A stretch of DNA of 12,939 bases, taken from an uncultured Gammaproteobacteria bacterium (lineage in GTDB: Bacteria; Patescibacteriota; Patescibacteriia; UBA2591; UBA6264). Below are positions 1 through 12,939 of the stretch, piece by piece. The notes under the pieces are model-generated. The model searched no databases. It was not told the DNA's origin and saw nothing but the letters and a program-made list of their open reading frames with translations. The stretch covers positions 1 through 12,939 of the forward strand of contig CAZDOL010000001.1 of the NCBI GenBank assembly GCA_964507075.1, read 5' to 3'. The translations under genes and the position numbers were made by a program. The stretch's first letter is position 1; each line of letters begins with the position of its first letter.

Positions 1-365
1 TTTTCTCCTACTTTCATTCCTAGGGTCCCTTGGTCCCAACCTTGAATTACTTGGCCGATGCCTACTGTAAAAGTAAAGGGTTCACCTCTGTCAATACTGG
101 AATCAAATTTAGAGCCATCAGTTAATGTTCCAACATAATGAACACTGATAACGTCATTTGCGACAACCATTCTTTCTCCAGTACCTTCTTGAAGAATGTC
201 TACTTGTAATGTAGTAGTTTCAGCTTCCACTACAACTTGCTCCTCTACGTTTTCTTCGCTTTGAGCATCTATCTCTGTTTCTTGATTATTGGCTCCTTTA
301 ACACATCCACTAATCATAAGCGTGATTAAAATTACACCAATTAAACCTAATGCTTTTTTTGTCAT
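1..365 (-). CDS. FKBP-type peptidyl-prolyl cis-trans isomerase, predicted lipoprotein (3' end runs off the window)
   Basis: Absent from the supplied ORF track because it is open at the window edge. Hand translation of the minus strand from ATG at 365-363 gives [122 protein letters not shown]. The string VHY.G.L.DG..FDSS..RG.PF.F..G.G.VI.GWD.G..GM.VGE is the classic FKBP catalytic-domain signature. The N-terminus is a hydrophobic signal peptide ending in lipobox I-S-G-C (Cys21). Confidence 0.9.
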
Positions 366-390
366 AATCATTCAAATTAAATTATTATTT

Positions 391-396
391 ATTATA
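391..396 (-). promoter_or_regulatory. Candidate -10 box (TATAAT on minus strand) for the FKBP gene
   Basis: A perfect TATAAT on the minus strand lies 25 nt upstream of the ATG at 365. There is no convincing -35 at 16-18 nt spacing: TTGATA sits 25 nt away. The background is AT-rich, so a chance match is possible. Confidence 0.25.
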
Positions 397-450
397 TTTA
401 ATAATGACCTATTAAAAATCATATCAAAAAATAACCAAAAAGTAAAGAGT

Positions 451-489
451 AAAAAGAAAGCGGGACGATCGCTTAGTATGCGCCGTCCC
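451..489 (-). terminator. Rho-independent terminator downstream of the 116-aa gene
   Basis: On the minus strand, just after the TAA stop (500-498), the sequence reads GGGACG(16-nt loop)CGTCCC, with stem arms at 484-489 and 462-467. This is followed by GCTTTCTTTTT (A-run 451-459 on plus). The GC-rich 6-bp stem may extend through internal loop pairing. Confidence 0.55.
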
Positions 490-497
490 TTATAATG

Positions 498-848
498 TTA
501 TTCTTTGATTAGGAACCCACCAAAGAGCTCCTCGAATCTTTCCCGAGATTCTACCCCAGAAAGATCATACTTTTGGATTGCCTCATCAAGGCTACCCCAG
601 TTTCCTAATCCAATAACGGGAACTCCTGGAAGATATTTCCAAAACCATGGAAGTGCCTGAGGTCCTTGTAAAGGACGACCATCAACGCTGTAACCGGGGG
701 TACGAAAAGCGAGAAAAACTGCATCTGGCGACAATTTCGCAACTGCCTCCAAATCCTTTTCTTTTATGCTCTTCATTGTTATGACTTCTACTCCAGCCAC
801 AGCAACAAACCGCAAATCCCCCTTTGGATCTATAACTAAGATTCTCAT
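498..848 (-). CDS. Hypothetical cytoplasmic protein, 116 aa, family not recognised (weak motif-level resemblance to the C-terminal half of a ribulose-phosphate-binding TIM barrel such as TrpF)
   Basis: Intact ORF with ATG start and a perfect AAGGAGG SD 6 nt upstream, plus its own promoter and terminator. No signal peptide or TM segment. The C-terminal string PVIGLGNWGSLDEAIQKYDLSGVES loosely resembles the G-G-x phosphate loop and SSGVE motif of TrpF-type barrels, but the protein is only about half barrel length. Confidence 0.75.
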   Translation of the reverse strand: MRILVIDPKGDLRFVAVAGVEVITMKSIKEKDLEAVAKLSPDAVFLAFRTPGYSVDGRPLQGPQALPWFWKYLPGVPVIGLGNWGSLDEAIQKYDLSGVESRERFEELFGGFLIKE

Positions 849-854
849 GGAGAA

Positions 855-860
855 CCTCCT
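855..860 (-). promoter_or_regulatory. Shine-Dalgarno site (AGGAGG) of the 116-aa gene
   Basis: The minus strand reads GAAGAAGGAGGTTCTCC-ATG. The AGGAGG core is followed by a 6-nt spacer and then the ATG at 848. This is the strongest SD in the window. Confidence 0.8.
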
Positions 861-894
861 TCTTCGTGATTGTTATTTTTTGAAAGATATTAGT

Positions 895-922
895 ATTATT
901 ACAGATTTAACCAATTTGTCAA
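895..922 (-). promoter_or_regulatory. Sigma-70-type promoter for the 116-aa gene
   Basis: The minus strand has TTGACA (917-922), a 16-nt spacer, then TGtAATAAT. This is an extended -10 element, with the -10 hexamer at 895-900. The -35 lies inside short inverted repeats (CCAATTTG..CAAATTGA, 911-937) that could act as an operator. Confidence 0.5.
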
Positions 923-962
923 TAACAAATTGACCAATTCCCAAAAGACAAACCAAAAACAA

Positions 963-1033
963 ACCCGACGGGTCCACCGCAGATTCAACTTTGATGACTA
1001 ACCCGACGGGTTAGTCATGAAGGTTGGTCATGA
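963..1033. repeat. Palindromic-unit mosaic A (REP/BIME-like) downstream of the giant gene
   Basis: Contains the core ACCCGACGGGT at 963-973 and 1001-1011. A perfect 11-bp-stem hairpin ATGACTAACCC-GAC-GGGTTAGTCAT spans 994-1018. An extra right arm GGTTGGTCATGA lies at 1022-1033. Positions 963-1016 match 8673-8741 at 49 of 54 positions apart from a 15-nt indel. Confidence 0.75.
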
Positions 1034-1064
1034 AAAAAAACAAACCCGACGGGTTTGTTTTTTT
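1033..1064 (-). terminator. Bidirectional Rho-independent terminator ending the giant gene
   Basis: The sequence is AAAAAAAA-CAAACCC-GAC-GGGTTTG-TTTTTTT. A 7-bp GC-rich stem with a triloop has an A-run on one side and a T-run on the other, so the minus-strand transcript ends in a U-tract about 40 nt after the TGA stop. A smaller hairpin GGGGAC.GTCCCC at 1082-1094 lies between the stop and this terminator. The stem is itself a copy of the palindromic-unit core. Confidence 0.8.
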
Positions 1065-1102
1065 GTAGAAGCTCGGCAAGTGGGGACAGTCCCCTATTTG
1101 TC

Positions 1103-4100
1103 TCAAAAGCCTGCGATAATTACAGGGGTGATTAGACTTTCGGCTAAAATTGTAATCGCGTCAGCTATAGTATAGGTTTCTGTTATTGGAATAGTGAAAA
1201 TCTTCTGACCTTCATATTTATTACTAATTAAAGCACTCCATGAAGCAAATGGCTTTAACTCTCCATTGCTTACTAAATAAACAGCAGAAGAATCAGTATA
1301 TTTGACCAAACAACCATTGGGATGTGTATCAGCTGATGTAATTGCTGTTCCTAAAGGATACTCAAATTTATCTAACAAATCATCTGGAACCCAAGTAACT
1401 AATTCCCAATTAGAATCATCAAATAATTCCTGATAAATTTCTCCTGATTGAACTGGCCTTAAAGTAGCATCTTCAACATAGAAAACTGCTGAAGCTGATT
1501 GTCCATATAATGAAAGAGCAGTGCCCCTAAACATTGAACCATCCCTAAATGGCACAGCGTCACCTTCTGTGAAATTTGTCAAATCATTCTCCGTAACCGT
1601 CTTAACACTTGAAAAATCTTTTGAATAATTCCAAGAATTATAAACAGCTATATGAGGAAAGACATGTCGTTGACCATTTAAGATTAAATAAACAGCAGAA
1701 CTATAACCTATTTTAACTAAATCCTGATCAAAAATTAATACCTCAGCGCTCACACCCGTGAGTTCTTCTAAAATAATTGAATCGGAAACCAATGAAGATT
1801 GATTAGACGATGCATCCATATACTTTACATAAACAATCTTTTCTCCGTCGCCATCGCTTAAAACCCAACTCATAGAAGTGGCGTAATCCTGCCATACTGA
1901 CTGAGAAAAATCAGATGAATTGCTAATAATCATTTTCACAGCATCAACTGCCGATAAAGATAAGAAAACATTTCGCGAATCTGTTGTTAAGCCTCCATTA
2001 TTAATGGATATTGAGATATTAGTTGGTCCAACATAAGGAGCTGAACCACTAGTGGAAGTAGTACTTCCTGGTGTTCCGGCTGAAGCAATCGTAACTGTTT
2101 GAGGAATAATTGCGGCAAATGTGGTCAAATGATTAACGCTAGCCTTAAATTTAACTTCACTAATATTACTCATATCAGCTAACACAGCATCTACTTCCAC
2201 TATGGTATCTCCTGAATAATAAGTCATAGTGGTCGGGACATTAACCCAATTATTAGTTGAATTATCCCAATAACCCATGCTCATTTTTTTCTGTTCAGTT
2301 AAAGTATCAATTTCATCAACAGCCAAAGTGCTGGTTGTATATTCCATAGTAATCTCAATATCACCATTTAATTGGGTAATTGGATTACCATTCTCGTCTA
2401 AAGCAGTGATACTTTTACCCTTTCCTGATAAAGGCTTGGACGAAGTAGTTGAAGGAATACTATTTGTTTCAGACACACTAAACTGTCCTGAACTACTGCC
2501 ACTACCCAAGGCCTGAGGAGGAACAACAATGTTAATTCCCATACTGGTATTTTTAATGGTTCCACCAGCTGAAGGTGTTAATGGTTGTGAAATTGGATTT
2601 TTTAATTTAGCAGCACCAGTTAAAAGTGTCAGGCTAAAATTTTTGCCTGTAATATTACCAGAACTTGTATTTGCGGATAAAGCTGTTGCTTCTGCATAAC
2701 CCTTTGCCACTGCCTTAATAGACCATGTTCCTGAAGTAACTGATAAAATATAAGTTCCGTCTGGATCAGTTTCAGTTCCCGACCAACCACCGCCTGTCTT
2801 TTCCGCCCAAATACGAGCATTAGCAACGGGATTAGCGCCGTCAGTTACAGTGCCAATAATTGTCCTATCATTAGCCGTCAAACTAAAATTTATGGATGAT
2901 TGATTGGCTCCGTTAAGAACCACTTCCTGCGGAACCGAAATATAACCTGGTTTATCAACTCCCATTTTATAAGTACCATTAGGAGCGTTAAGCGAATACA
3001 TGCCGTCGGAATTTCCGTCGTTAGATGTTGCAACGCCAAAGTACTCTTTGGTAGAATCATTTTGCACCCAAACCCATGCGTCATTAACGCCAGTACCACC
3101 AACTTTAACTTGTCCGCTAATTGCATAAAGTGTTGGTAATGTAATAGTAATTGATTCATCGCCATTAACAGTTAATTGTTTAGTGCTTGCGCTATATCCA
3201 TCACTAGTAATGGTTATCGCATCAAAATTAACTCCAGGCATAAAAGCATTGATATAGTAAACTCCGTCTGGCAACTGAATCTTTCTTGATGTTTCGCCTG
3301 ATGGAATTTTCAGACCATTGCCTATGCCACTTGTGCTAAAGAAATCAACAAAACTATCTCCATTAACAGAACTATTTAAAGTAACTGTTATGGTTCTTGG
3401 CTGGGCTACTGTCAGGTTTTTGCCAGTTTCATCGCCATCAACCACAACCGTCAAAGAAGCTAAATTTCCAATTCCTGGGATAAACGCTTCTACTGTATAT
3501 GTAGCGTAAGGCAAATAATTAATTTTATAAGTTCCATCGCTACCCGTCTTGGTTTCATTTCCTCCGCCAGGTCCCCAAGCATGCACCATTATTCCGGAAT
3601 CATCAGATGTACCCGGAATATCAATAGTTCCCGATATAGAGCCCAAATCAGAAGACGGAGAAAAATTTTGACCAGTCAAACTCTCTGTACTAACTGTTAA
3701 GGTTTTTGAACCCAAATAACCATAGCTTGGAGCATTAGCCTCTAATTGCCAAGTACCCGCTCCAACATAGATTGTATAATTACCAGTACTATCTGTTCGT
3801 CCATCAGCATGTCCTGGACCATCAGTACGATGTGCCCAAACAGCCGCATTAGAAATAATATTTGTTCCATCAGTTACCCGACCAGTAATTGTATAATCTG
3901 GCTTAGCAACTTTTAATATAACATTAGTAGTAGCTGTTGGTGAGCCACTGGCATAAACTGCCGAACTCGTAACAACTACTGAAATCTCTTGACTGGAAGG
4001 CATACCAGGAAGGAATGCTCCCACAATATAACTGCCCTCGGCAACATTCAAAGTATAGGCTCCGTCTGATTTAGTTTTAGTATGAGAGCCCATACCTCCG

Positions 4101-7100
4101 CCATTCGGACTATTGGCAAAAACCTCAGCATTAGCTACTGCGTTAGCGCTGCCGTCAAGAACATGTCCTGTGATGGTTTTATCAGCGCTAGCAAAACTAA
4201 AACCAACCGTAGAAGGATTAGCAAGCCATGGACTGTTTGTCACCATAAGATTGGTTGGTTGTGAAGGTAGCCAGTCAATTTCTGGCATAGCGCTCATCAT
4301 TGGGCCTTTAGGCATAGCCGGTCCCATACCAACATTCCAGTCGCCAGTTTGTGGCAAATATAAAGTAATTGGATTAGCTGATGAATCAGCAATATGAGCT
4401 ATTAATTCCACGCGGGTTAAAGTTTTAACCACAAACCCTCTTGGGCTTCCGGCAAAAATATCAATACTGTCATTAAATCCAAGATTAGCAGGCGCGTTAT
4501 TAGTTACTGTCCCAGTAATGGTTACAGTAACTGTCGCTCCGTTATCAGATGACGCTTCTTGAACAGTGAAATTCTTGGTTTCACCTCCGCTAACATAAAT
4601 TGGCTCTGGCCAATCCTGTCCATAATAATCAGCGCTACCAACAGTAAACATTGGCTCTGTCCACATTTGATAATTGCCAGCAGGTAAATTTTCAAACTTA
4701 TATTCTCCCGCATTATTTCCAGCAACTAAATCAACAGCGCCGTTTAAGGAAGTGAGCGCTTCCATTGGTCCTGTCATAGGTGAACCCAAGAAAACTCTTA
4801 CTCCATTTAAACCAGTAACTCCTGTTTTAACTGTTCCAGAAATAGTGTTTGTTCCTGCTCCACTCAAAAAGAAAGGCATTGAAGTCATTGCCTCAATTAA
4901 AGCGCCAGAAGAATCTTTGGTTTGAATATTTACTTGATAACCGCTTGTTTCAAAACCTTTTGGTTCGCTTGAATTAATAATGCCATCAAGGTCAAGGCTT
5001 AAGAAATCCTTTGATTGAGTGGCAACTGATAATTTAATTATGACTTTTCTCGCGCCAACAGCTACGCCAATACCATCGTTAGGTGTCCCGCCTGCGGCAA
5101 CTCCAGTGCCAGTTGGATCAGCGCTTGCAAAAGTAACTGTGCCAGGTCCTGGTCCATTAAAATCAGCATTCATTGGACTATATTGGTCCTGCTTTGCTCC
5201 GCTTATATTAAAACCAGCTGGAAATTGAAGCTCAAGAGTCCCATTAGCTGGAATAGCTGTATTTATTGGAACATCAACAAAATATACACTTGTCGCGCCA
5301 GCCATTTGATTCATAGGCATAACATTGATTGGTTCCATTCCCATTGAGCCCATATTAAAATCCTCAAAACCCATTGAGCCCATATTAAACATTCCCTGTC
5401 CTCCTGCAAAATTAGCCCCGTCCATAACTACGCCACTCCATGACTTAAATCCTGTGGCAACGCCATTCCCAGACAAATCAGTAACGCCAGTTGAGACCTC
5501 AATATAAAAGCCATGTCCTGGGGTTAATGTTAAGCCGTCTACCATAACTTCATTATTCATTGATTCATAATGGAAATTCACACCTGATTGCAAATTCTGT
5601 TGAGTGCCTGCGCTTGCGTCGCATCCTGAAGTAACGCAAGTTTTTAATGTGTAATTTCCGCCACTTTCTGCGGTTGAAGTAACTAATGATTCGTCAAACT
5701 GAATAAACAACCCATAATTATCAGCGTCTGCCCAAACTACTTGCGGGTCAGTTGTATCAGCCGCGCCAGTAGTAAAGGTCTTAGAAACTGCTGTAATGGC
5801 TTGACCAGAAATACTTTTAACAGCAGTAGAAATGGCAAATGTATAACTTGTATTTGGAAGCAAAACAGTATTCGGCATAAATTTAATTGAATTTCCATCC
5901 ATAGCGTTATAATTAACCGTTCCACCTATATTCAAAGTATTATTTTTCTTTAAAGTAACATTAGTTGTGTTAACAGTTGCCGGATTTAATGTATTGTCAA
6001 AATTGGCTCTAATTTCAAAACCAGTTGGCACGCCAGTCATTAAACCGCCAGACATATAAGCATCTAAATTAGAACCAGTCAAACTAGCGTTAATTGTAAC
6101 ACTACCTGAACCAGTATTAAAAGATTCTTTAAATGATCCCATATTACCGAAGCCGAAGCCGAAGCCACCACCTTCTGGCATACCAGCTAATTGTTCATTA
6201 TTAGAATCTCGGACGTCACGAGTAACAATAACCCTGTATTCGCTGTTAGCTTCGTAAGTATAACCAGTAATGGTTGCACTTCTGTTATCAGCGCTTGGCG
6301 TTAAGGTTACGGTACCAGAAGGCAGGATTGCTGATTCACTACCGCTAACCATTTTCTTAATATAAATATTGTTGGCAAAGGTCGTCGTATCCATGGGTCT
6401 GTCAAAACCAACTATAATTGCGCTAACATTTGTGGGTACATCCCATGAATTAGGCATTGGATAATCTAAAAATGCCATTGGAGGAAAAGAACCTCCCATA
6501 TCACCAGTAAATTGATTGTCCATACCAGGCATCCATCCGCCCATCATACCACCCGGACCTCCACCATCTGGAGGGGCTGTATAATTTCCACCTCCAGAAC
6601 CAGTGGCAAAAGAAAAACTATAAACTAATTCTGTTGAGGTTAGGGCAGGCATAAAAGAATCAAGAGAAGTATTGGAAACTATTGTTTTCTTTACTGAAGC
6701 CGTATAATTCATGCTATCACTAAATCCACTTGTTGCGTTAAATGAAACAAAATATTCTGTATTGCCACTCCAAGAATGATTGCCAGAGCTCCATTGTCCA
6801 GTTACAGCCACCCCATCGCCGTCAACAATAGAAAAATTACTTGTTGAAGTGTTGGTTAATGGGAAACTTCCGCTGGGTTCAGTGTTAAAGAAAAAATCAA
6901 TTGGCGCAAATGATGGAACATTAACATCACCGTTCATTGGGCCATAGCCAACAATAGCTAAAGTTGTTGGAGCGACAATAGTGGTCTGGGAAGTAATATC
7001 ATTGCCAGCAGTTACAGAACCAGAATTAGGAGTAACTGTGACTATGCTATCAATTGCGCCAGTGGCTTTCACCACCACCACTCCTTCACCATTATTTAAA

Positions 7101-8416
7101 CTAATATTTTGCGCAGTTGTTTGGTCTAAATTTTCATAACCAGTTGTGCTTCCGTTCACCGAAACAATAACTCCATTACTAACAGATATTGAAACATCAT
7201 TGATTGGATTGCCAATTAAATTATCATTTGAATCTCTCTGGTATAAAGCAACTTGCACTTGTCCATTTTCCACAACAGTTGAAGCAGCAACAGCAGAAAT
7301 ATGATCCGCGCCTTGCATGCCATAATCCATCACAGTGATAGCTTTATGACCATCTGCCTCAACATAATTGGTGCTATCAGACATAACATAAACATCAAAC
7401 GAGCCGGCATTAGTGTCTTTGCAAGTCACAGTTCCTTGACCTGTTGTTCCACTCATGCTCACCAACCAATGCTGGCTATTATATTGCTGAACAACGCTAA
7501 GATCTCCGCCAACAGACACAATACTGGCTGTGGTTGAATTTTCAAGGTCAATATATATTCCTGTTGTAGCAACATCAGTAGCAATGGTGCTCCCCTCAGT
7601 ATCAACCTGATCAATAGTTAGAGTGATTGGCGCGCCCGGACCAGTGCTAGCATTACTTGAATTAGTAACTTTTATATTATTCGCGGCTGTTAAAGTCGGT
7701 GATTTGATTACTGTGTCATCCATAGTATGATAATTGTCCCAACTCTTAAACACGCCCTCGCCCGCATTATAGACATTAGCAGTCCCGCCAGTACTTACTT
7801 TTGCATTATCCAAAACAGTTAAGGCAGCGCCAACCTGATAAGCGACGATTACTGCATCAGTAGAAGTGACATTGTCGCTCGTAGATATATAAACACCTTC
7901 GCCTATTTCATAAATTGGATTATTGCCAATATTGGTAGTGACCTTAGCATTATTCAATGTTTCCAAACTAGCGCCAACAACAAGTTCTTCTCTTAAGGCA
8001 GGAGTTTCGCTCCAATCCAAATATGTATCTCCATCTGAATCTAAAACAGTATTAGCGTCAATATAAAAACCCTCTCCAGACGCCCAATTAGCATCTCCGC
8101 CAGTTATCTTGGGATTAGCCAAAGCATATAAATCGTTTCCAATATCGCTATCTTCGCTCGTTACTACGCTCCCTACATTCAATCCTATTGGTGGAGCAAT
8201 TCGCACGTCATCTATTGAGACAACTGAATCTGCATCAGCGTCCAGATATATAAACTCAATATCTCTTTCCCAGACATCTGTCGCTCCGCCAGTATCTATT
8301 TTAAAATGGTCAACCGTTCCTGATGCATTAGCTGGTAAAGCAACAATTGGACTCAATGGTAAAATTATAACACTTATCATTGTTATAATTGATAAAAACT
8401 TTTTTGAATCTTTCAT
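1103..8416 (-). CDS. Giant secreted multi-domain surface protein (2,437 aa), adhesin or S-layer-like, with Ig-like modules and a carboxypeptidase-regulatory-like (CarboxypepD_reg) repeat array
   Basis: Uninterrupted 7,314-nt ORF. N-terminal signal peptide with an A-N-A/S cleavage motif. Composition is very rich in Thr/Ser/Gly/Asn/Val, with almost no Cys and few Lys/Arg. Domain motifs recognised by eye are listed in the sub-features below. No C-terminal TM helix, LPXTG or lipobox. Confidence 0.95.
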   Translation of the reverse strand: MKDSKKFLSIITMISVIILPLSPIVALPANASGTVDHFKIDTGGATDVWERDIEFIYLDADADSVVSIDDVRIAPPIGLNVGSVVTSEDSDIGNDLYALANPKITGGDANWASGEGFYIDANTVLDSDGDTYLDWSETPALREELVVGASLETLNNAKVTTNIGNNPIYEIGEGVYISTSDNVTSTDAVIVAYQVGAALTVLDNAKVSTGGTANVYNAGEGVFKSWDNYHTMDDTVIKSPTLTAANNIKVTNSSNASTGPGAPITLTIDQVDTEGSTIATDVATTGIYIDLENSTTASIVSVGGDLSVVQQYNSQHWLVSMSGTTGQGTVTCKDTNAGSFDVYVMSDSTNYVEADGHKAITVMDYGMQGADHISAVAASTVVENGQVQVALYQRDSNDNLIGNPINDVSISVSNGVIVSVNGSTTGYENLDQTTAQNISLNNGEGVVVVKATGAIDSIVTVTPNSGSVTAGNDITSQTTIVAPTTLAIVGYGPMNGDVNVPSFAPIDFFFNTEPSGSFPLTNTSTSNFSIVDGDGVAVTGQWSSGNHSWSGNTEYFVSFNATSGFSDSMNYTASVKKTIVSNTSLDSFMPALTSTELVYSFSFATGSGGGNYTAPPDGGGPGGMMGGWMPGMDNQFTGDMGGSFPPMAFLDYPMPNSWDVPTNVSAIIVGFDRPMDTTTFANNIYIKKMVSGSESAILPSGTVTLTPSADNRSATITGYTYEANSEYRVIVTRDVRDSNNEQLAGMPEGGGFGFGFGNMGSFKESFNTGSGSVTINASLTGSNLDAYMSGGLMTGVPTGFEIRANFDNTLNPATVNTTNVTLKKNNTLNIGGTVNYNAMDGNSIKFMPNTVLLPNTSYTFAISTAVKSISGQAITAVSKTFTTGAADTTDPQVVWADADNYGLFIQFDESLVTSTAESGGNYTLKTCVTSGCDASAGTQQNLQSGVNFHYESMNNEVMVDGLTLTPGHGFYIEVSTGVTDLSGNGVATGFKSWSGVVMDGANFAGGQGMFNMGSMGFEDFNMGSMGMEPINVMPMNQMAGATSVYFVDVPINTAIPANGTLELQFPAGFNISGAKQDQYSPMNADFNGPGPGTVTFASADPTGTGVAAGGTPNDGIGVAVGARKVIIKLSVATQSKDFLSLDLDGIINSSEPKGFETSGYQVNIQTKDSSGALIEAMTSMPFFLSGAGTNTISGTVKTGVTGLNGVRVFLGSPMTGPMEALTSLNGAVDLVAGNNAGEYKFENLPAGNYQMWTEPMFTVGSADYYGQDWPEPIYVSGGETKNFTVQEASSDNGATVTVTITGTVTNNAPANLGFNDSIDIFAGSPRGFVVKTLTRVELIAHIADSSANPITLYLPQTGDWNVGMGPAMPKGPMMSAMPEIDWLPSQPTNLMVTNSPWLANPSTVGFSFASADKTITGHVLDGSANAVANAEVFANSPNGGGMGSHTKTKSDGAYTLNVAEGSYIVGAFLPGMPSSQEISVVVTSSAVYASGSPTATTNVILKVAKPDYTITGRVTDGTNIISNAAVWAHRTDGPGHADGRTDSTGNYTIYVGAGTWQLEANAPSYGYLGSKTLTVSTESLTGQNFSPSSDLGSISGTIDIPGTSDDSGIMVHAWGPGGGNETKTGSDGTYKINYLPYATYTVEAFIPGIGNLASLTVVVDGDETGKNLTVAQPRTITVTLNSSVNGDSFVDFFSTSGIGNGLKIPSGETSRKIQLPDGVYYINAFMPGVNFDAITITSDGYSASTKQLTVNGDESITITLPTLYAISGQVKVGGTGVNDAWVWVQNDSTKEYFGVATSNDGNSDGMYSLNAPNGTYKMGVDKPGYISVPQEVVLNGANQSSINFSLTANDRTIIGTVTDGANPVANARIWAEKTGGGWSGTETDPDGTYILSVTSGTWSIKAVAKGYAEATALSANTSSGNITGKNFSLTLLTGAAKLKNPISQPLTPSAGGTIKNTSMGINIVVPPQALGSGSSSGQFSVSETNSIPSTTSSKPLSGKGKSITALDENGNPITQLNGDIEITMEYTTSTLAVDEIDTLTEQKKMSMGYWDNSTNNWVNVPTTMTYYSGDTIVEVDAVLADMSNISEVKFKASVNHLTTFAAIIPQTVTIASAGTPGSTTSTSGSAPYVGPTNISISINNGGLTTDSRNVFLSLSAVDAVKMIISNSSDFSQSVWQDYATSMSWVLSDGDGEKIVYVKYMDASSNQSSLVSDSIILEELTGVSAEVLIFDQDLVKIGYSSAVYLILNGQRHVFPHIAVYNSWNYSKDFSSVKTVTENDLTNFTEGDAVPFRDGSMFRGTALSLYGQSASAVFYVEDATLRPVQSGEIYQELFDDSNWELVTWVPDDLLDKFEYPLGTAITSADTHPNGCLVKYTDSSAVYLVSNGELKPFASWSALISNKYEGQKIFTIPITETYTIADAITILAESLITPVIIAGF
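1142..1741 (-). repeat. C-terminal triplicated module (aa 2226-2425), candidate wall- or cell-anchoring domain
   Basis: Three related segments are present. They are LVKIGYSSAVYLILNGQRHVFPHIAVYNSW, FRGTALSLYGQSASAVFYVEDATLRPVQSGEIYQELF and CLVKYTDSSAVYLVSNGELKPFASWSALISNKY. The shared pattern is [LV]-[VK]-x(2,6)-S-[SA]-AV[YF]-[LY]-[IV]-x-[ND]-G/A-x-[LR]-[KRH]-P/V-[FV]. Confidence 0.5.
2627..4843 (-). repeat. Array of 6 clear plus 2 degenerate CarboxypepD_reg-like domains (aa 1192-1930)
   Basis: The units start ISGTVKTGVTGLNGVRVFL, ITGHVLDGSANAVANAEVFA, ITGRVTDGTNIISNAAVWAHRTDG..TDSTGNYTIYVGAGTWQLEANAPSYG, ISGTIDIPG..TGSDGTYKINYLPYATYTVEAFIPG, ISGQVKVGGTGVNDAWVWV..SDGMYSLNAPNGTYKMGVDKPGY and IIGTVTDGANPVANARIWA..TDPDGTYILSVTSGTWSIKAVAKGY. 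All fit the i.G.V.d..g.p...A.v......t.Td..G.Y....l..G.Y.v.....Gy consensus. Confidence 0.7.
5340..5389. repeat. Perfect 20-nt direct repeat with 30-nt period inside the giant ORF
   Basis: CCCATTGAGCCCATATTAAA occurs at 5340-5359 and again at 5370-5389. On the coding strand this encodes FNMGSMG-FED-FNMGSMG within the third Met/Gly-rich linker. Confidence 0.9.
5417..6976 (-). other. Four Ig-like beta-sandwich modules of the SbsA-Ig/Big_5 type (aa 481-1000) separated by Gly/Met/Phe-rich linkers
   Basis: The module starts resemble the Big_5 pattern (P..g..nVp....i.i.Fs.pmd..t). Examples are GPMNGDVNVPSFAPIDFFF, PMPNSWDVPTNVSAIIVGFDRPMDTTTFANNIYI, TGVPTGFEIRANFDNTLNPATVNTTNVTL and DTTDPQVVWADADNYGLFIQFDESL. 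Assignment is by motif only. Confidence 0.5.
6149..6166. repeat. (GAAGCC)x3 hexanucleotide tandem repeat inside the giant ORF
   Basis: GAAGCCGAAGCCGAAGCC encodes GFGFGF on the coding strand, within the linker GMPEGGGFGFGFGNMGSF. In-frame, so copy-number slippage would only change linker length. Confidence 0.9.
7667..8116 (-). repeat. Three tandem ~45-55-aa protein repeats near the N-terminus (aa 101-250)
   Basis: The repeated pattern is N-x-K-[IV]-[TS]-[TG]...G-E-G-[VF]-[YF]. The instances are NPKITGGDANWASGEGFYID, NNAKVTTNIGNNPIYEIGEGVYIS and DNAKVSTGGTANVYNAGEGVFKS, followed by a further NNIKVTN. Family not recognised. Confidence 0.6.
8324..8416 (-). other. Sec signal peptide of the giant protein (aa 1-31)
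   Basis: The sequence is MKDSKKFLSIITMISVIILPLSPIVALPANA/SG. It has a basic n-region, a hydrophobic core and an AxA-type cleavage site. Confidence 0.85.
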
Positions 8417-8425
8417 AATTTTGTT

Positions 8426-8461
8426 ATTAAATATTATTAATATAATCCGTCAAAGACGGAT
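8426..8461 (-). promoter_or_regulatory. Hairpin plus possible proximal promoter immediately upstream of the giant ORF start
   Basis: A 7-bp stem hairpin ATCCGTC-AAA-GACGGAT lies at 8445-8461. On the minus strand TTGACG (8448-8453), a 16-nt spacer and TTTAAT (8426-8431) would place a transcription start only 2-3 nt before the ATG, giving a leaderless-type mRNA. No SD is visible: the 30 nt before the ATG are pure A/T apart from one C. Confidence 0.25.
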
Positions 8462-8517
8462 GCTCTAAATTCTTGCAAAATTTTCTACGCTTTTGCTTGA
8501 AAACTTTGAGAATTTAA

Positions 8518-8555
8518 GCAAAATAAAAAACCCTCCCTTTATTTCAAAGAAGGTT
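8518..8555 (-). terminator. Terminator-like or attenuator hairpin within the leader of the giant gene
   Basis: The minus strand reads AACCTTCTTT-GAAATAA-AGGGAGGGTT followed by TTTTATTTTG. The stem is about 10 bp and includes 3 G-U pairs, followed by a U-rich tract. The left arm and loop are the last codons and stop of the mini-ORF at 8539-8589. Confidence 0.4.
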
Positions 8556-8589
8556 CTATAAGAGTTAAATGACATATTTTAACACCCAT
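8539..8589 (-). promoter_or_regulatory. Candidate 16-codon leader mini-ORF (MGVKICHLTLIEPSLK)
   Basis: The ORF is ATG GGT GTT AAA ATA TGT CAT TTA ACT CTT ATA GAA CCT TCT TTG AAA TAA. It starts 7 nt after the TATAAT box at 8597-8602, so it would be nearly leaderless. It ends inside the terminator-like hairpin loop. Coding status unproven. Confidence 0.2.
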
Positions 8590-8596
8590 AACTTGA

Positions 8597-8625
8597 ATTA
8601 TATCACTAATTTTTAACTTTGTCAG
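8597..8625 (-). promoter_or_regulatory. Near-consensus sigma-70 promoter with extended -10, upstream of the giant gene
   Basis: The minus strand has CTGACA (8620-8625), a 17-nt spacer, then TGaTATAAT, a perfect -10 at 8597-8602 with the TG extension. This is the best promoter match in the window and lies about 180 nt upstream of the giant ORF ATG. Confidence 0.55.
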
Positions 8626-8637
8626 CCAAACCCTGTG

Positions 8638-8746
8638 CATAACCCATAACCTCATGACCAACCTCATGACCAACCCGTCGGGTCAACCGCAGATTCAACC
8701 TTGACGACCAACCCTTTTATGACCAACCCGACGGGTTAGTCTTTTT
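8638..8746. repeat. Palindromic-unit mosaic B (REP/BIME-like) between the last GT2 gene and the giant-gene promoter
   Basis: Contains tandem CATAACC x2 (8638-8651) and tandem TCATGACCAACC x2 (8652-8675). The core ACCCGTCGGGT lies at 8673-8683 and ACCCGACGGGT at 8726-8736. Positions 8673-8741 form a direct copy of 963-1016, matching at 49 of 54 positions with a 15-nt internal duplication TTTTATGACCAACCC at 8715-8729. The hairpin GACCAACCC-GAC-GGGTTAGTC (one mismatch) is followed by TTTTT. Confidence 0.75.
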
Positions 8747-8747
8747 A

Positions 8748-9536
8748 TTATCTCCATTTCCAGAAGTATTTTATGGCACTTTGGATATGAATCCATATTA
8801 TTTTAGAAAATAAAGAAGGTAAAGCCGAGCGCATATTTGATAGACGCTGATGTGCATGAATTATTTGCGCAGTCGGTAAATATATAACTTTCCTTCCCTC
8901 TTGCCAAACCTTGCGGGCTAAATCTACATCATCAAAATATAAAAAATATCTTTCATCAAAGCCTCCAATTTTTTCAAAAAAATCTTTCTTGAGCATTAAA
9001 GCAGCTCCTATCATCCAATCAACTTCTTTTTCTTTTCTATGATCATAGTCGTACATTAAATATTTTTTGAGCTTGTTCTTTAATAAAGGTAATCCTCCAA
9101 AAAAAGTTCTCCTTAAAAAGGGAGTATACCAATGAGGAAAACGACAACAAGAATGTTGAACAGTATGGTCTAAATTCAATAATTGCGGACCCACCATACC
9201 AACTTCTTGATGACTATTTAAATAAGAGTAAAGCTTTTCAATAGCTCCTGGCAGGATGATAATATCTGGATTACAAATAAAAATATAATCTCCTTGAGCC
9301 AATTTAACTGCCTGATTGTTGCCAGTGGCATAACCAGAATTATGATTATTAAAAACCACTTGCGTTTTAACTGGAGCTAAGTTAAGTTGAGATAAAAATT
9401 CCCTACTTTTGTCTTGTGAGTTATTATCAATCACAATAAGCTCATAATCTATTTTGATTTGAGCGCTTAAAATGCTTTTCAGACATTTCTCAAGAAGATT
9501 AACATTATTATAATTTAGGACGATAATAGACAACAT
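8748..9536 (-). CDS. Family 2 glycosyltransferase (rhamnosyltransferase-like GT2), 262 aa
   Basis: The N-terminus LSIIVLNYNNVNLLEKCLKSILSA...YELIVIDNNSQD has the GT-A fold signature. Also present are NSGYATGNNQA, the NPD (DxD-equivalent) motif and FDDVDLARKVWQEGRKVIYLPTAQIIH, typical of WbbL/RfbF-like GT2 enzymes. Confidence 0.9.
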   Translation of the reverse strand: MLSIIVLNYNNVNLLEKCLKSILSAQIKIDYELIVIDNNSQDKSREFLSQLNLAPVKTQVVFNNHNSGYATGNNQAVKLAQGDYIFICNPDIIILPGAIEKLYSYLNSHQEVGMVGPQLLNLDHTVQHSCCRFPHWYTPFLRRTFFGGLPLLKNKLKKYLMYDYDHRKEKEVDWMIGAALMLKKDFFEKIGGFDERYFLYFDDVDLARKVWQEGRKVIYLPTAQIIHAHQRLSNMRSALPSLFSKIIWIHIQSAIKYFWKWR

Positions 9537-9563
9537 ATAGTATAAAATCTCTAATTTCTAATT

Positions 9564-9583
9564 CCTGCCTGCCAGCAGGTAGG
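9564..9583 (-). other. GC-rich hairpin in the GT2-GT2 intergenic spacer
   Basis: CCTGCCTG-CCAG-CAGGTAGG forms an 8-bp stem (one G-U pair) with a tetraloop. It is strikingly GC-rich against AT-rich flanks. Confidence 0.4.
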
Positions 9584-9586
9584 CCT

Positions 9587-9613
9587 AATGACAAACCCGA
9601 CGGGTTTGTCATT
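9587..9613 (-). terminator. Palindromic unit forming a 12-bp-stem hairpin that overlaps the stop codon of the upstream GT2 (terminator-like)
   Basis: The sequence is AATGACAAACCC-GAC-GGGTTTGTCATT. The right arm includes the TAA stop (9614-9612) of ORF 9612..10643. There is no clean U-tract on the minus strand, so it may act as an RNA stabiliser or partial terminator rather than a canonical terminator. Confidence 0.45.
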
Positions 9614-10643
9614 ATACAAACCATTTATTAATTTTTTCTGGACTAGCTTTTGCTTTTCTCATAATATATTTTCTTTTGCGAATAATTTTAAAAAACTTTT
9701 TCCAGAAAGAAAAACCGCTCTGAAATAAAATTTTGGGCTGAGTAAAAAACAAATATGTTTTTTTAAGCGCCAAATAAACAAAAATATGACCTATATTTCG
9801 CCAAAAAATTGATGAATGAATATTTTTAATTAACATCCAAAGATGATTACGGAAAGAATAAAAATTTATCAAAGGAGATTGACAAAATCGTTTAGATTTG
9901 GGAGCTCCTGCGCGAAAATGATAAGCTTTAACTTCAGGAACATAAACATTTTTCCAGTTACGTAAATTTAAACGCCAAGCCAAGTCAACGTCCTCCTTAT
10001 AAGCGAAAAAGTCATCATCAAAATATTCATATCCCTTACTTCTGGGAATTTTAACATCTTCTAATGCTTTGCGACGATACAAAACGCAAGCACCAGAAAG
10101 GCCAAAAACATCATTTTCTTTGTCGTATTGCCCCTTGTCCTCTTCTCCTTCCCCTCGGTCGATTGTTTGTCCTGATTTTTTAATTAAAAGACCAGTACTA
10201 TCAATAATATCTGTCTTAATGCCCTTTACCTTTGTTTCTGAATTATTAAATTTCATTTTTAATAACTTGCCCGAGCAACTACCAATACGATGGTTGGTTT
10301 CCATCGTTGCTATCAATTTCTTTAAAAAATCTGGTTCTAAAACAACATCTGGATTCATTACTAAAATAAAATCTGATTGGCTAATATTAAAACCCTGATT
10401 GTGTGCGGGGGCAAAGCCTAAATTATGAACATTTTTCAAAATAAACAAATTTTTAAAAGATGAATATTTCTCTTTAACAAATTCAATGGTTTTGTCAGTG
10501 GAAGCATTGTCAATAATTAAAATTGAAAAATCTTTATAAGTTTGAGCAAAAACTGAATCAAGACAATTCTCTATAAAAAAACGACTATTCCAAGTAACAA
10601 TTTGAATCAATATTTTAGAGCTTCTCTTCTTTTTTGGATTCAT
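9612..10643 (-). CDS. Family 2 glycosyltransferase, 343 aa
   Basis: The motifs ILIQIVTWNSRFFIENCLDSVFAQTYKDFSILIIDNASTD, NLGFAPAHNQG, MNPD and YKEDVDLAWRLNLRNWKNVYVPEVKAYH are all present. The annotated ATG overlaps the upstream gene by 29 nt. An internal TTG around the ILIQ segment is an alternative start. Confidence 0.9.
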   Translation of the reverse strand: MNPKKKRSSKILIQIVTWNSRFFIENCLDSVFAQTYKDFSILIIDNASTDKTIEFVKEKYSSFKNLFILKNVHNLGFAPAHNQGFNISQSDFILVMNPDVVLEPDFLKKLIATMETNHRIGSCSGKLLKMKFNNSETKVKGIKTDIIDSTGLLIKKSGQTIDRGEGEEDKGQYDKENDVFGLSGACVLYRRKALEDVKIPRSKGYEYFDDDFFAYKEDVDLAWRLNLRNWKNVYVPEVKAYHFRAGAPKSKRFCQSPLINFYSFRNHLWMLIKNIHSSIFWRNIGHIFVYLALKKTYLFFTQPKILFQSGFSFWKKFFKIIRKRKYIMRKAKASPEKINKWFV

Positions 10644-12063
10644 GGTTAAAAATGATAATAACTGAAATTAAATAAAAAATTCCTAAAGCATGAAATAAAT
10701 ATGGGCCAGTAATAGTTGCTACCACTAAACTTAATAAGCCAGCGCCCAAACCAACAATCAATCTCTGTCGTTTGATGTTGCCTTGAGCTCTTTGAAATAA
10801 TTGTCGCCCCTGATAAAAAATAATTGCTAAAATAAAACAATATAAAATCAAACCTAATAATCCTAATTCTAGCCAAATCTCCAGATAGCCCCAATCAATA
10901 TGGAACGTAATGTCTTCTTTTTGAGAAAGAGGATTTAAATAAGATATAGTTGAACCTAAGCCGTATCCAAAAATCGGTTTTTCTTTTATCTTTTCTAATA
11001 AACGTGGCAAAATAGACAAACGAGTAGAGGCGCTTAATTCATCGTCAGGAGAAGTAATGCTTCTCATTCTCTGTTGTAAATAAGCTATATTTGGATTTTG
11101 ATTTATTAAAAAATTAAGAACTCCAAATTCAGTAATCAAAAAAATTACTATTATTAAAAAGAAAACTATCCATTTTTTAAATTTTAACCCTTGGGCCAAA
11201 AAAATCAATCCCAAAAATAAACCCAAAAAATAAGCACGAGAGAAATTTATCAAAAATGCTAAGCTTGCTAAAATGCACAAAAAAATAACACTCTTTTTTC
11301 TGGTAGAACGATTAGCCAGAAAACTAAGGAGAATTAAAAAGAAAGGCAAAATCAAAAGATGTGCTGAACTGACAATCCGAAAAAAATTATTACCAGCTGA
11401 AGTTGCCTTACCGAAAACTGTTTGTCTCCACCACCAGTAAAATTGATCGTGCACACTTACTAATCCAGTCGCAAAAAGAAAGAGAACTATAATTGTCAAA
11501 AGAGAAATACCTATAATCCCTGCTTGAATAATTTGTTTGCCTCTTTTTTGGAAAAATCTATTCCCTATTACTTCTGACAAAGGGAAGATTAAAAAGAAAT
11601 AAGAATAATTTAAAAAATCTTTAAGAGCTAAAAATTTGTTATTAATAAACCATCCACGACACAAAGAAAAAATAACTACAAACAAAAAAGCCAAAAGAGC
11701 AAAAGATAAAGGAGATTTATCTAAAAGAATTAAATTTTTTAATTTTTTAAAAGAAAATTTAGGCCAAAAAACTTTTCTAAAAAACCAAACTAGCATTATT
11801 ACAAGAAATAAAGACAAGCGGAGAGAAATGCCCCTAAAGCTAAAACAATGTCCTTCGTGTCCAGCCAAAAACTCAAATAATAAAAATAAAAAACCGTATT
11901 CAATCTTGCACCAACTAAAAATAATGGCTGCAAGAATAATTAAAAGAAAAATTATTTCTTGCAATCCTGGCCAAGAACGACCAAGCAGAGATAAGAATTG
12001 GAATACAAAATATGCATAAACTAAAAATCGAATTTTAAAAAGAGAATTAATAAATTTTGACAT
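10615..12063 (-). CDS. O-antigen ligase/polymerase family (Wzy_C-type) polytopic membrane protein, 482 aa
   Basis: About 10-12 hydrophobic helices are present. The characteristic Wzy_C region includes NFSRAYFLGLFLGLIF, then a large loop with RLSILPRLLEKIKEKPIFGYGLGS and the conserved His context FHIDWGYLEIWLELGLLGLILY. Both ends overlap the flanking GT2 genes. Confidence 0.85.
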   Translation of the reverse strand: MSKFINSLFKIRFLVYAYFVFQFLSLLGRSWPGLQEIIFLLIILAAIIFSWCKIEYGFLFLLFEFLAGHEGHCFSFRGISLRLSLFLVIMLVWFFRKVFWPKFSFKKLKNLILLDKSPLSFALLAFLFVVIFSLCRGWFINNKFLALKDFLNYSYFFLIFPLSEVIGNRFFQKRGKQIIQAGIIGISLLTIIVLFLFATGLVSVHDQFYWWWRQTVFGKATSAGNNFFRIVSSAHLLILPFFLILLSFLANRSTRKKSVIFLCILASLAFLINFSRAYFLGLFLGLIFLAQGLKFKKWIVFFLIIVIFLITEFGVLNFLINQNPNIAYLQQRMRSITSPDDELSASTRLSILPRLLEKIKEKPIFGYGLGSTISYLNPLSQKEDITFHIDWGYLEIWLELGLLGLILYCFILAIIFYQGRQLFQRAQGNIKRQRLIVGLGAGLLSLVVATITGPYLFHALGIFYLISVIIIFNHESKKEEKL

Positions 12064-12939
12064 TTTGCTTTCTGAATATTTTTTTAATTACCAAAAATAA
12101 ACCGCTTATCCAAGCCAAAAATAGACTTAAAGGATAAAAAAATGATAAAAATCCAACTTTCCAGGGATGATGTTTTTTAAAATAATAAATTGCGCTTCTG
12201 TTATAAATCTTTTGTTTAGCTAATGAAAGAACTTGGGCAAAACTTTGAGACCCATAATGAACAATGGTTGGCTCCGGAGAATAAACCACTTTCCATCCCG
12301 CCTTTTTTGTTCTTTTGCAAAAATCAACTTCCTCAAACCAAATATAAAATTTTTCATCTAACATACCAATTTTAGACAAAACCTCTCTCTTGGTCATCAG
12401 AAAAGCTCCCATAACTTGGTCTACTGAAACTGTTTTCTTATAATCAAAATTAAGTTGAAAATAGTTTTGCAATACTTTAGCTCGCGGAAAAACATGATGT
12501 AGTTTTAAAGAAATCATTATCTGGGGAATAAGTTTAGGAAAATTTCTAACTGATAATTGTGTTTGTTTATTGGCCTCCAATAAACGACAACCCAAAACTC
12601 CCCAGTCCTTATTTTTTTTCATCAACTCAACTGCTTTTGCTAAACTCCCCCTTTCTATAATCTCTGTATCTGGATTCAGTAACAAAACATATTCTCCTTG
12701 AGCTTGTTTTATGCCTTGATTATTAGCTTTGGCAAAACCTAAATTTTGATTATTAAGAACAATTTTCACATTTGCTTCAGTTTTAAAACTGGCTAAAAAT
12801 TCCTTGCTGTCATCACGCGTAGAATTATTATCAATCACGATAATTTCATAATCCAAATCAGAAGTATTCTTAATAACAGAAAGCAAGCATCTTTCTAAAT
12901 AATGCTTTACATTCCAATTAACAATAATAATTGATAAAA
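12047..12939 (-). CDS. Family 2 glycosyltransferase with C-terminal membrane anchor (5' end runs off the window)
   Basis: The ORF track starts at a TTG at 12886, but the frame stays open to the window edge and reads (F)LSIIIVNWNVKHYLERCLLSVIKNTSDLDYEIIVIDNNS. This is the canonical GT2 N-terminus, so the true start is beyond 12939. Also present are NLGFAKANNQG, LNPD and FEEVDFCKRTKKAGWKVVYSPEPTIVH. The C-terminal hydrophobic helix is LSFFYPLSLFLAWISGLFLVI. Confidence 0.9.
   Translation of the reverse strand, partial: LSIIIVNWNVKHYLERCLLSVIKNTSDLDYEIIVIDNNSTRDDSKEFLASFKTEANVKIVLNNQNLGFAKANNQGIKQAQGEYVLLLNPDTEIIERGSLAKAVELMKKNKDWGVLGCRLLEANKQTQLSVRNFPKLIPQIMISLKLHHVFPRAKVLQNYFQLNFDYKKTVSVDQVMGAFLMTKREVLSKIGMLDEKFYIWFEEVDFCKRTKKAGWKVVYSPEPTIVHYGSQSFAQVLSLAKQKIYNRSAIYYFKKHHPWKVGFLSFFYPLSLFLAWISGLFLVIKKIFRKQNVKIY

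Follow-up and report, generated by a model that had tools for sequence, protein, structure and literature searches.

A giant surface protein from a probable member of the Patescibacteria, with a predicted autoproteolytic domain and a predicted non-covalent cell-wall anchor

Introduction

How is a secreted protein of 2,437 amino acids (aa) held on its cell when no transmembrane (TM) helix, LPXTG signal, S-layer homology (SLH) domain or lipobox can be read in it? This question is raised by a single 7.3-kb open reading frame (ORF) at positions 1103..8416, on the minus strand of a stretch of DNA 12,939 nt long (contig CAZDOL010000001.1, positions 1 to 12,939), which will be called the window. The original prediction, made from the sequence without database searches, took the product for a modular surface protein of structural rather than enzymatic kind, either an S-layer protein or a host-attachment adhesin, and left its retention without an explanation. 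The reading put forward here, which as a whole mechanism we hold with moderate confidence, is that the protein is a fibrillar adhesin, exported by the Sec pathway, for which we predict both a non-covalent anchor in the wall and, ahead of that anchor, a break point.

The gene and its integrity

1103..8416, minus strand: complete ORF, ATG start, 2,437 aa

The ORF stands as it had been called, and its product is identical to an NCBI protein (P0164) encoded on a 75.2-kb contig; the mature protein is computed at ~251 kDa and is acidic (pI 4.2). Near-identical intact copies of the gene are found in two ENA assemblies (L014 and L015), and the ten sister contigs that are nearly identical to the window run collinear with it, none of them showing an indel in the frame. 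An assembly chimera or a frameshift, either of which would have undone the original prediction, can thus be rejected for the window allele. When the window is compared with a diverged allele (L016) over codons 772-2406, where nucleotide identity is 80-87%, the overall ratio of nonsynonymous to synonymous substitution rates (dN/dS) is 0.10, and the values of individual modules, which range from 0.075 to 0.137, reflect purifying selection on each of them; each part has thus been maintained as protein. The giant gene is real and is no assembly artefact.

A predicted self-cleaving domain

2102..2611, minus strand: MAIN/GAIN_B-like domain, aa 1936-2105 (AlphaFold2 model, Foldseek, profile alignment)
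2123..2131, minus strand: H2096-L2097-T2098, an HX(S/T) motif with its predicted cut between L2097 and T2098 (alignment and model)

The first part of the answer lies in the module that ends in NHLTTFAAI, which the original prediction had delimited without assigning and which is real and conserved. In an AlphaFold2 (AF2) model of aa 1936-2112 (mean predicted local distance difference test, pLDDT, 82.7; predicted template modelling score, pTM, 0.79) the three best PDB matches returned by Foldseek are all GAIN domains, namely those of CD97 (9mqr_A; E 6e-4, probability 1.00, TM-score 0.52), ADGRB2 (8oek) and CELSR1 (8vy2), with probabilities of 0.99-1.00 and query TM-scores (TMq) of 0.47-0.52 across the three. 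The fourth match is the ZU5 tandem of ankyrin-B; because the Pfam match of the module to ZU5 is weak and below the cut-off (E 0.0099), ZU5 was dropped as a family name and kept as a fold relative only. The HLT triplet is placed by the model between strands 152-159 and 164-170, that is, in the turn before the last strand. Independently of the fold search, a sequence profile of the module pairs '...tvttdHfTkfail' with VTCQCTHLTSFSILM of ADGRF1 (E 0.02-0.04), a protein in which the stretch CTHLTSFSILM contains the cleavage site HL/T (the slash marks the cut) followed by the tethered peptide.

A word-indexed homologue search with this module found no relatives, and the alignment was built with a local hidden Markov model (HMM) from proteins already collected, among which a MAIN-like module is present in 15. 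In the relatives aligned the His is invariant and the F/L-T/S that follows it nearly so, the middle residue being Phe in 14 of them, and those relatives that keep both His and Thr/Ser share just 17-27% identity with the module in the window. The diverged allele L016 likewise keeps DHLTTFAAIV. Among the 12 library proteins with both modules, 11 have the MAIN-like module N-terminal to the anchor described in the next section.

The closest precedent is the Microbial Autoproteolysis INducing (MAIN) domain, which has a GAIN_B-like fold and an HX(S/T) motif (Brogan & Rudner, bioRxiv 2026, doi 10.64898/2026.05.12.724683). That study demonstrated the cut before S/T (HF/S) by Edman sequencing and S-to-A mutants, found that the fragments remain associated after cleavage, and reported that nearly all MAIN domains tested so far are cleaved. 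Its ~15,000 MAIN proteins, with a mean of 158 kDa, run from a signal peptide through adhesion or enzymatic domains to MAIN and a wall anchor, and many of them bear hydrolases or toxins; the domain is enriched in Bacillota, and Patescibacteria are not mentioned (Brogan & Rudner 2026). The giant protein combines a predicted GAIN_B-type fold with an HX(S/T) motif at the turn that leads into the last strand, and its domains come in the same order, so that the NHLTTFAAI module is likely a GAIN_B/MAIN-type domain and is predicted to be autoproteolytic, self-cleavage being something that we infer here by analogy with Brogan & Rudner (2026). A cut between L2097 and T2098 would yield, by computation, a 214.7-kDa ectodomain and a 36.8-kDa stub made up of the last strand, a Ser/Thr-rich linker, an Ig-like module with the motif INNGG, and a triple repeat.

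It can also be envisioned that the GAIN-like module is structural and no longer cleaves, in which case the protein would be a permanently tethered fibre serving as a fixed spacer or adhesin. Non-cleaving GAIN domains do exist among adhesion G protein-coupled receptors (GPCRs), the ADGRB2 entry 8oek having been deposited as an uncleaved state, and the middle residue of the triplet is Leu here and Phe in the 14 relatives. Against this, HL/T is the canonical cleavage triplet of adhesion GPCRs and aligns with the motif in the window, the His and Thr/Ser are retained both in relatives of 17-27% identity and in L016, and nearly all MAIN domains that have been tested were cleaved (doi 10.64898/2026.05.12.724683). 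We therefore regard a permanently tethered fibre as unlikely, if not negligibly so, and favour a module that would cut its own chain.

A triple repeat as the probable wall anchor

1772..2101, minus strand: Ser/Thr-rich linker and Ig-like "INNGG...YVKYMDASSN" module, aa 2106-2215 (conservation in relatives)
1106..1723, minus strand: triple EccB-repeat-like module, aa 2232-2437, predicted non-covalent wall anchor (AF2, Foldseek, profile searches)

The second part of the answer concerns what follows the predicted cut. Although a C-terminal triplication, which proves real and conserved, had been recognised in the original prediction, how the protein is retained had been given as unknown, and it is this statement that can now be replaced. 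The AF2 model of the triple repeat (pLDDT 80.8) consists of three b-b-b-a-b-a units of ~55-70 aa in tandem, each with four strands and two helices, and the top 11 PDB matches of this model in Foldseek are periplasmic chains of EccB (probability 0.94-0.99 for the top four). A sequence search of the PDB with the C-terminus was empty. A published description of the EccB repeat gives it a four-stranded sheet and two helices and notes its likeness to PlyCB, a wall-binding protein (PMC4769845).

A word-indexed search with the C-terminal domain returned 11 relatives, all of them from Patescibacteria or metagenomes, three being small proteins in which a signal peptide leads directly into the repeat domain, and an exhaustive profile search collected 4,325 cluster representatives at E <= 1e-3. 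The family, which is without a Pfam model of its own, occurs in three settings: C-terminally in other giant proteins, N-terminally in a family of ~1,175-1,350 aa, and in long arrays. An HMM of a single repeat (built from the third repeat of this subfamily only) finds 6-16 tandem copies beside catalytic domains; in P0080, for instance, Amidase_2 (60-226) is followed by eight repeats (255-712) and SpoIID (860-963). Nine array-type carriers include glucosaminidase, Amidase_2 with SpoIID, SpoIID alone, CAP and, in family member P0028, EccB itself (PF05108, E 4e-10). Forty-four further diverse carriers include SpoIID in nine, Amidase_2 in six and Peptidase_S8 in five, with YkuD, M23, CHAP, glucosaminidase and EccB (PF05108, E 9e-17) in one each, and relatives that bear the anchor also carry GH123 or NHL/lactonase-like propellers. 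Arrays of the repeat beside peptidoglycan hydrolases reproduce the layout of autolysins, and it is for this reason that non-covalent holding in the wall is proposed: judged by its domain company, the triple repeat is probably a cell-wall-binding module and the anchor of the protein. The same company, if it has been read correctly, would be the first comparative support for the suspected wall binding of EccB repeats in type VII secretion.

The C-terminus itself ends in ...LITPVIIAGF, with a conserved tail "LAExLxTPxI" that falls within the repeat domain. A sorting signal in 'LAESLITPVIIAGF' was considered and rejected, because copies of the domain that are placed N-terminally match via the same positions and contain this tail, which thus belongs to the repeat.

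The Ig-like INNGG module between the predicted cut and the repeats had also been singled out in the original prediction, and it is conserved in P0001, P0002 and P0014. It gives a weak match to DUF6060. As a separate observation, aa 2125-2216 (window 1769-2044) match phage family phrog_10898, of unknown function, at E 9e-9. The paralogue P0014 (2,291 aa) shares only its last ~750 aa with the giant protein, at 41% identity, so that the end of the stalk, MAIN and the anchor are conserved while the head varies.

Signal peptide, head and stalk

8324..8416, minus strand: Sec signal peptide, aa 1-31, with MKDSKK, a hydrophobic core and ANA/SG (read from the sequence, no predictor program)
7631..8320, minus strand: first part of the head, aa 33-262, with three GEG repeat units (self-comparison)
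6971..7630, minus strand: second part of the head, aa 263-482, probably beta-rich (family and PDB scans without a match)
5435..6967, minus strand: four Big_5 Ig-like domains, aa 484-994 (Pfam)
4847..5314, minus strand: module aa 1035-1190, without a family match (segment-wise family scan)
2627..4846, minus strand: stalk of CarboxypepD_reg/transthyretin-like beta-sandwiches, aa 1191-1930 (Pfam and self-similarity)
5297-5416, 6125-6181, 6461-6601 and 4283-4330: low-complexity linkers, aa 1001-1040, 746-764, 606-652 and 1363-1378 (composition)

The remainder of the protein is a secreted head and a long stalk, and here most of the modular description given in the original prediction holds. The signal peptide is the sole segment in a scan of the whole protein whose Kyte-Doolittle mean over 19 aa exceeds 2 (2.38), which leaves no other TM-like segment. 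A motif scan found no C-terminal LPXTG and no lipobox, LPxTG-like strings being internal only (LPNTS at aa 853 and LPQTG at aa 1354), and Pfam scans found no SLH domain, no CWB2 and no other known S-layer anchor or lattice domain. The triple GEG region is likewise borne out, GEG[FV][YF] recurring at aa 114, 172 and 219, with the units at 147-178 and 195-225 being 53% identical. An invasin/Big_1-like region at aa 262-480 is the one assignment that fails: nothing in Pfam matches this segment up to E = 10, Big_1 (PF02369/PF09134) included, and its sole match in the whole-protein scan is to an Ig-like GH2 C-terminal domain at 0.039.

Pfam places the four Big_5 copies at aa 484-602, 653-745, 794-883 and 904-994. 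The region after them, first delimited as aa 1041-1190, still matches no family as aa 1035-1190 in the segment-wise scan, and it evolves under purifying selection (dN/dS 0.075 against L016). The earlier count of six to eight CarboxypepD_reg-like domains is fair: six stretches are found by Pfam in the whole-protein scan (E 1e-33), of which four lie above the family cut-off when scanned segment by segment while those at 1609-1668 and 1191-1284 are weak, and a degenerate copy at aa 1672-1764 is visible by self-similarity only. An insert at aa 1296-1412 within the stalk had no match in the segment-wise scan. The Gly/Met/Phe/Pro-rich low-complexity linkers between beta-sandwiches, for example GGQGMFNMGSMGFEDFNMGSMGMEPINVMPMNQM, are unusual in themselves, and the linker region contains an exact 20-nt tandem duplicate (5340-5359 and 5370-5389).

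The two regions that are without a family assignment invite a different explanation of the protein, namely that the head (aa 33-482) or the module at aa 1035-1190 is catalytic and that the ectodomain is shed to act remotely as an enzyme or toxin. Many MAIN proteins bear hydrolases or toxins (doi 10.64898/2026.05.12.724683), and Peptidase_S8, GH123 or NHL/lactonase-like propellers are found in relatives that have this anchor. Nevertheless, Pfam, NCBIfam, PHROGs and a PDB sequence search detect no catalytic family anywhere in the giant protein, NCBIfam in fact giving no match to it at all, and the composition is typical of proteins built of beta-sandwiches and repeats. We consider an enzyme or toxin carrier quite improbable, and the earlier expectation of a structural rather than an enzyme family is upheld. 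For the head, aa 33-482 match nothing in Pfam, NCBIfam, PHROG or the PDB and so offer no recognised adhesive domain, and a word-indexed homologue search with aa 33-481 gave only fragments from the same population (100% and 87% identical). An adhesive head at the end of a stalk is the function that the architecture suggests.

An amber codon in most sister contigs

7487-7489, minus strand: codon 310, CAG (Gln) in the window and TAG (amber) in most sister contigs (contig alignment)

If the protein is a surface fibre, one may ask how consistently it is displayed. TAG stands at codon 310 in 8 of the 11 public contigs from JGI, ENA and SRA samples (L001, L012, L013 and L017-L021), on several backgrounds of single-nucleotide polymorphisms (SNPs). 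Because of this codon, gene callers split the gene into two products of 309 aa and 2,117 aa; the larger would begin at M321, well past the signal peptide, and the fibre can therefore not be displayed by most of the genomes sampled. The intact window copy might on this ground be a minority allele of a decaying gene without a current role. However, there is a single disabling change, always at the same site, the remaining 2,127 codons are open in every contig, dN/dS against the diverged allele is 0.10, and intact copies are present in four independent assemblies. We give decay scarcely any credence, and a recent or balanced on/off polymorphism fits the pattern better than long-term loss.

The amber pattern also bears on the suggestion that the protein is an S-layer subunit that self-assembles into a lattice and is held on the wall by its C-terminal module. 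In favour of this are the size, acidity and Sec export of the protein, its Ig-like beta-sandwiches and its predicted wall anchorage, together with the reported prevalence of S-layers in Patescibacteria and a weak match of the N-terminal half of the MAIN-like profile to a chain named "surface layer protein" (4uj7_A, E 6e-5). With 251 kDa and ~20 tandem domains, the protein nevertheless has the look of a fibre more than of a lattice subunit, its head has no relatives beyond its own population, and a predicted self-cleaving release domain sits between body and anchor. Truncation in 8 of 11 sister contigs is hard to square with a main structural coat, and it agrees with a surface structure that is dispensable and may be selected against, an adhesin or a phage receptor for example. 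Related loci moreover encode, in the ~1,240-aa family with an N-terminal wall module, a more conventional candidate for an S-layer. An S-layer subunit thus seems distinctly unlikely; of the pair of roles first proposed, modular secreted surface protein and likely adhesin stands, and the S-layer half is weakened, the amber allele and the predicted release domain being among the reasons.

A further feature of the population is seen in L016 (JGI 3300005645, Ga0077109_1001100), compared over window 1191-12939, where nucleotide identity drops sharply, from ~100% to 80-87%, within the giant gene near window nt 6100 (aa ~771), with a single 2-aa deletion in the diverged part. Either intragenic recombination or a strain-chimeric contig would account for the switch.

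A proposed mechanism and what weighs against it

Taken together, these features suggest a fibre which, from the outside in, would consist of a 450-aa head, presumed to bind a ligand; a stalk in which four Big_5 domains and some seven CarboxypepD_reg beta-sandwiches are joined by Gly/Met-rich linkers; MAIN; the linker and Ig-like module; and the triple repeat. After export, MAIN would undergo self-cleavage between L2097 and T2098 by an N-to-O acyl shift, with H2096 as base and T2098 as nucleophile, leaving nothing but the hydrogen bonds that the last strand (TTFAAIIP) makes in the beta-sheet to hold the 215-kDa ectodomain to the 37-kDa stub. The triple repeat would keep the stub in the cell wall non-covalently, and load on a bound head would then separate the two pieces, such that the cell is freed or the ectodomain is shed.

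Several points weigh against this mechanism. The TM-score of the GAIN match in Foldseek is moderate (0.52), the triplet is HLT where relatives have HFT, and GAIN domains that keep the fold without cleaving are known. The TM-score to EccB is ~0.23 overall, which is because the repeats are arranged differently, Pfam does not detect PF05108 in the protein's own C-terminal repeats, and a peptidoglycan-binding role for EccB was suspected by its authors from a weak resemblance to PlyCB (PMC4769845). The term adhesin is owed to the architecture, the head having no recognisable adhesive domain, and most sampled genomes, with their amber allele, would be unable to display the protein. Finally, the protein and its candidate phyla radiation (CPR) relatives are known from sequence and models alone, and the taxonomy follows from the relatives.

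Genomic neighbourhood

8625-8597, minus strand: promoter-like site, CTGACA, a 17-nt spacer and TG-TATAAT (read from the sequence)
8417..8625, minus strand: promoter-like site and leader (motif reading and folding)
1031..1064: GC-rich hairpin flanked by A/T runs, 40-70 nt past the stop codon

The giant gene appears, from these signals, to form its own transcription unit. Its 184-nt leader (window 8417-8600, minus strand) folds with a minimum free energy (MFE) of -48.7 kcal/mol (z = -6.5) into four hairpins, one of them terminator-like (8557-8527); it has no Rfam match and could be a regulatory leader. The hairpin at 1031..1064 looks like a bidirectional terminator. As a separate matter, a GC-rich palindrome, AACCCGACGGGTT, recurs with shared flanks at only three intergenic spots (959-1064, 8661-8746 and 9583-9615); these positions are occupied in all sister contigs, and no further copies lie within 20 kb. 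A 46-nt direct repeat (959-1004 and 8669-8714, 87% identical) brackets the giant gene. A mobile cassette bounded by these repeats is unsupported, since the hairpin recurs between two glycosyltransferase genes and the surroundings, which include HSP70 and ribosomal protein S9, are those of a chromosome.

Directly upstream the same strand carries a complete surface-glycan cluster of the Wzx/Wzy type (window 8748-12886, minus strand; 3694-10789 in L012) that encodes a Polysacc_synt/MurJ-like flippase, a family 4 glycosyltransferase (GT4), a GT2, a Wzy_C protein and a further pair of GT2 enzymes. GC content is ~0.40 in the giant gene and ~0.30 in this cluster, which may serve synthesis of a wall polymer or glycosylation of the giant protein. 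Downstream come a 116-aa ORF, an FKBP lipoprotein, an extracytoplasmic function (ECF) sigma factor and a single-pass DUF5667 protein. The FKBP-type peptidyl-prolyl isomerase (window 1-375, minus strand; cut by the window edge) bears the lipoprotein signal LMISGC, so that the organism makes lipoproteins, though the giant protein is not one.

The ECF sigma factor and the single-pass DUF5667 protein form a conserved trio with a ~1,240-aa protein in which the triple wall module directly follows the signal peptide (L002-L011; L012 19886-20674; L022 11198-12046). In five loci of distant Patescibacteria (L003-L007) the trio follows directly downstream of a giant-type gene, with an inverted sigma gene in L005. 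The third member belongs to the ~1,175-1,350-aa family with an N-terminal module (P0026-P0036 and similar; L002 13066-16764), which makes up about one third of the best 150 anchor matches and has no Pfam domain. ECF sigma and DUF5667 genes adjoin genes for triple-repeat wall-anchored proteins in 7 of 9 distant Patescibacteria loci, and in the organism of the window they lie two genes from the giant gene; the sister contigs examined that reach the DUF5667 gene all end 73-93 codons into it. Relatives are labelled Patescibacteria, Parcubacteria or Falkowbacteria, and by this guide the organism of the window is probably a member of the Patescibacteria (CPR).

An anti-sigma-like role may be assigned to the DUF5667 protein, and one can speculate, with very little probability attached, that the giant protein is one arm of an envelope mechanosensing circuit. 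Were this so, the stub, once the ectodomain is lost, would present an exposed TTFAAIIP strand, and the DUF5667 protein would read the change, a bacterial counterpart of the tethered-agonist signalling of adhesion GPCRs. According to the MAIN preprint, signalling has yet to be tied to the stub (doi 10.64898/2026.05.12.724683).

Wider meaning

Attachment to other microbes is the presumed way of life of Patescibacteria, and beyond type IV pili little is known of the machinery of contact. The locus offers a concrete model of such a structure, in which the foot of the fibre is a widespread, predicted wall-binding repeat that lacks its own Pfam family, the break point is of the adhesion-GPCR type, and natural on/off alleles coexist within one population. 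If the predictions hold, the MAIN family would extend to a lineage absent from its study and to a new type of anchor, and the repeat would become a candidate anchor for some of the fibrillar adhesins that have been reported without a known one.

Comparison with known systems

Fibrillar adhesins of monoderms (PMC8286594) have an N-terminal distal head, a tandem stalk and C-terminal wall attachment, and they are long and fast-evolving; the giant protein shares this plan, with the polarity typical of monoderms, but neither a known adhesive Pfam domain nor a known anchor was found in it. It would belong to the roughly half of fibrillar adhesins for which that study reports no known anchor (Monzon, Lafita & Bateman 2021, PMC8286594).

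As for the anchor, the periplasmic repeats of EccB in type VII (ESX) secretion and PlyCB of the phage lysin PlyC have the same four-stranded sheet with two helices, in tandem, and PF05108 is matched by sequence in members of the repeat family but not in the giant protein's own C-terminus. Unlike EccB, the giant protein has neither the EccB core domain nor an N-terminal TM helix, and its repeat family is a movable module, N- or C-terminal or in arrays of up to 16 copies, that adjoins peptidoglycan hydrolases, a link not described for EccB. It is here that modular autolysins, with CWB, LysM, SH3b or GW modules fused to amidases, provide the parallel: arrays of the same repeat family stand beside Amidase_2, SpoIID, CHAP, M23 and glucosaminidase, whereas the giant protein itself is without a catalytic domain and would use the repeat as the foot of a fibre only.

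With the GAIN domain and GPCR proteolysis site (GPS) of adhesion GPCRs (CD97/ADGRE5, ADGRB2, CELSR1 and ADGRF1), the giant protein shares a predicted GAIN_B fold and a motif '..NHL/TTFAAI' that aligns with 'THL/TSFSILM' of ADGRF1, and, like the tethered peptide, its last strand would remain in place once the chain is cut. In contrast, it lacks both a helical GAIN_A subdomain and the conserved GPS cysteines, and no seven-transmembrane (7TM) region lies downstream, the stub ending instead in a predicted wall-binding module.

The nearest likeness is to MAIN proteins such as YfkN of B. subtilis and the IgA-Fc receptor of S. agalactiae, which have the same order of domains, a repeated adhesion-type ectodomain and very large size, and in which the HX(S/T) triplet likewise occupies the turn before the last strand. 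The giant protein differs in that its anchor is triple EccB-repeat-like rather than a sortase signal, SLH or Pfam wall-binding domain, its triplet has the adhesion-GPCR form HLT in place of HFS, its probable source lineage is the Patescibacteria, it has no enzymatic or known adhesive domain, and its cleavage is predicted. Overall, by its modelled fold and motif, it is one more member of a known architecture that joins the recently defined MAIN family, distinctive in its lineage, its anchor repeat and its natural on/off polymorphism.

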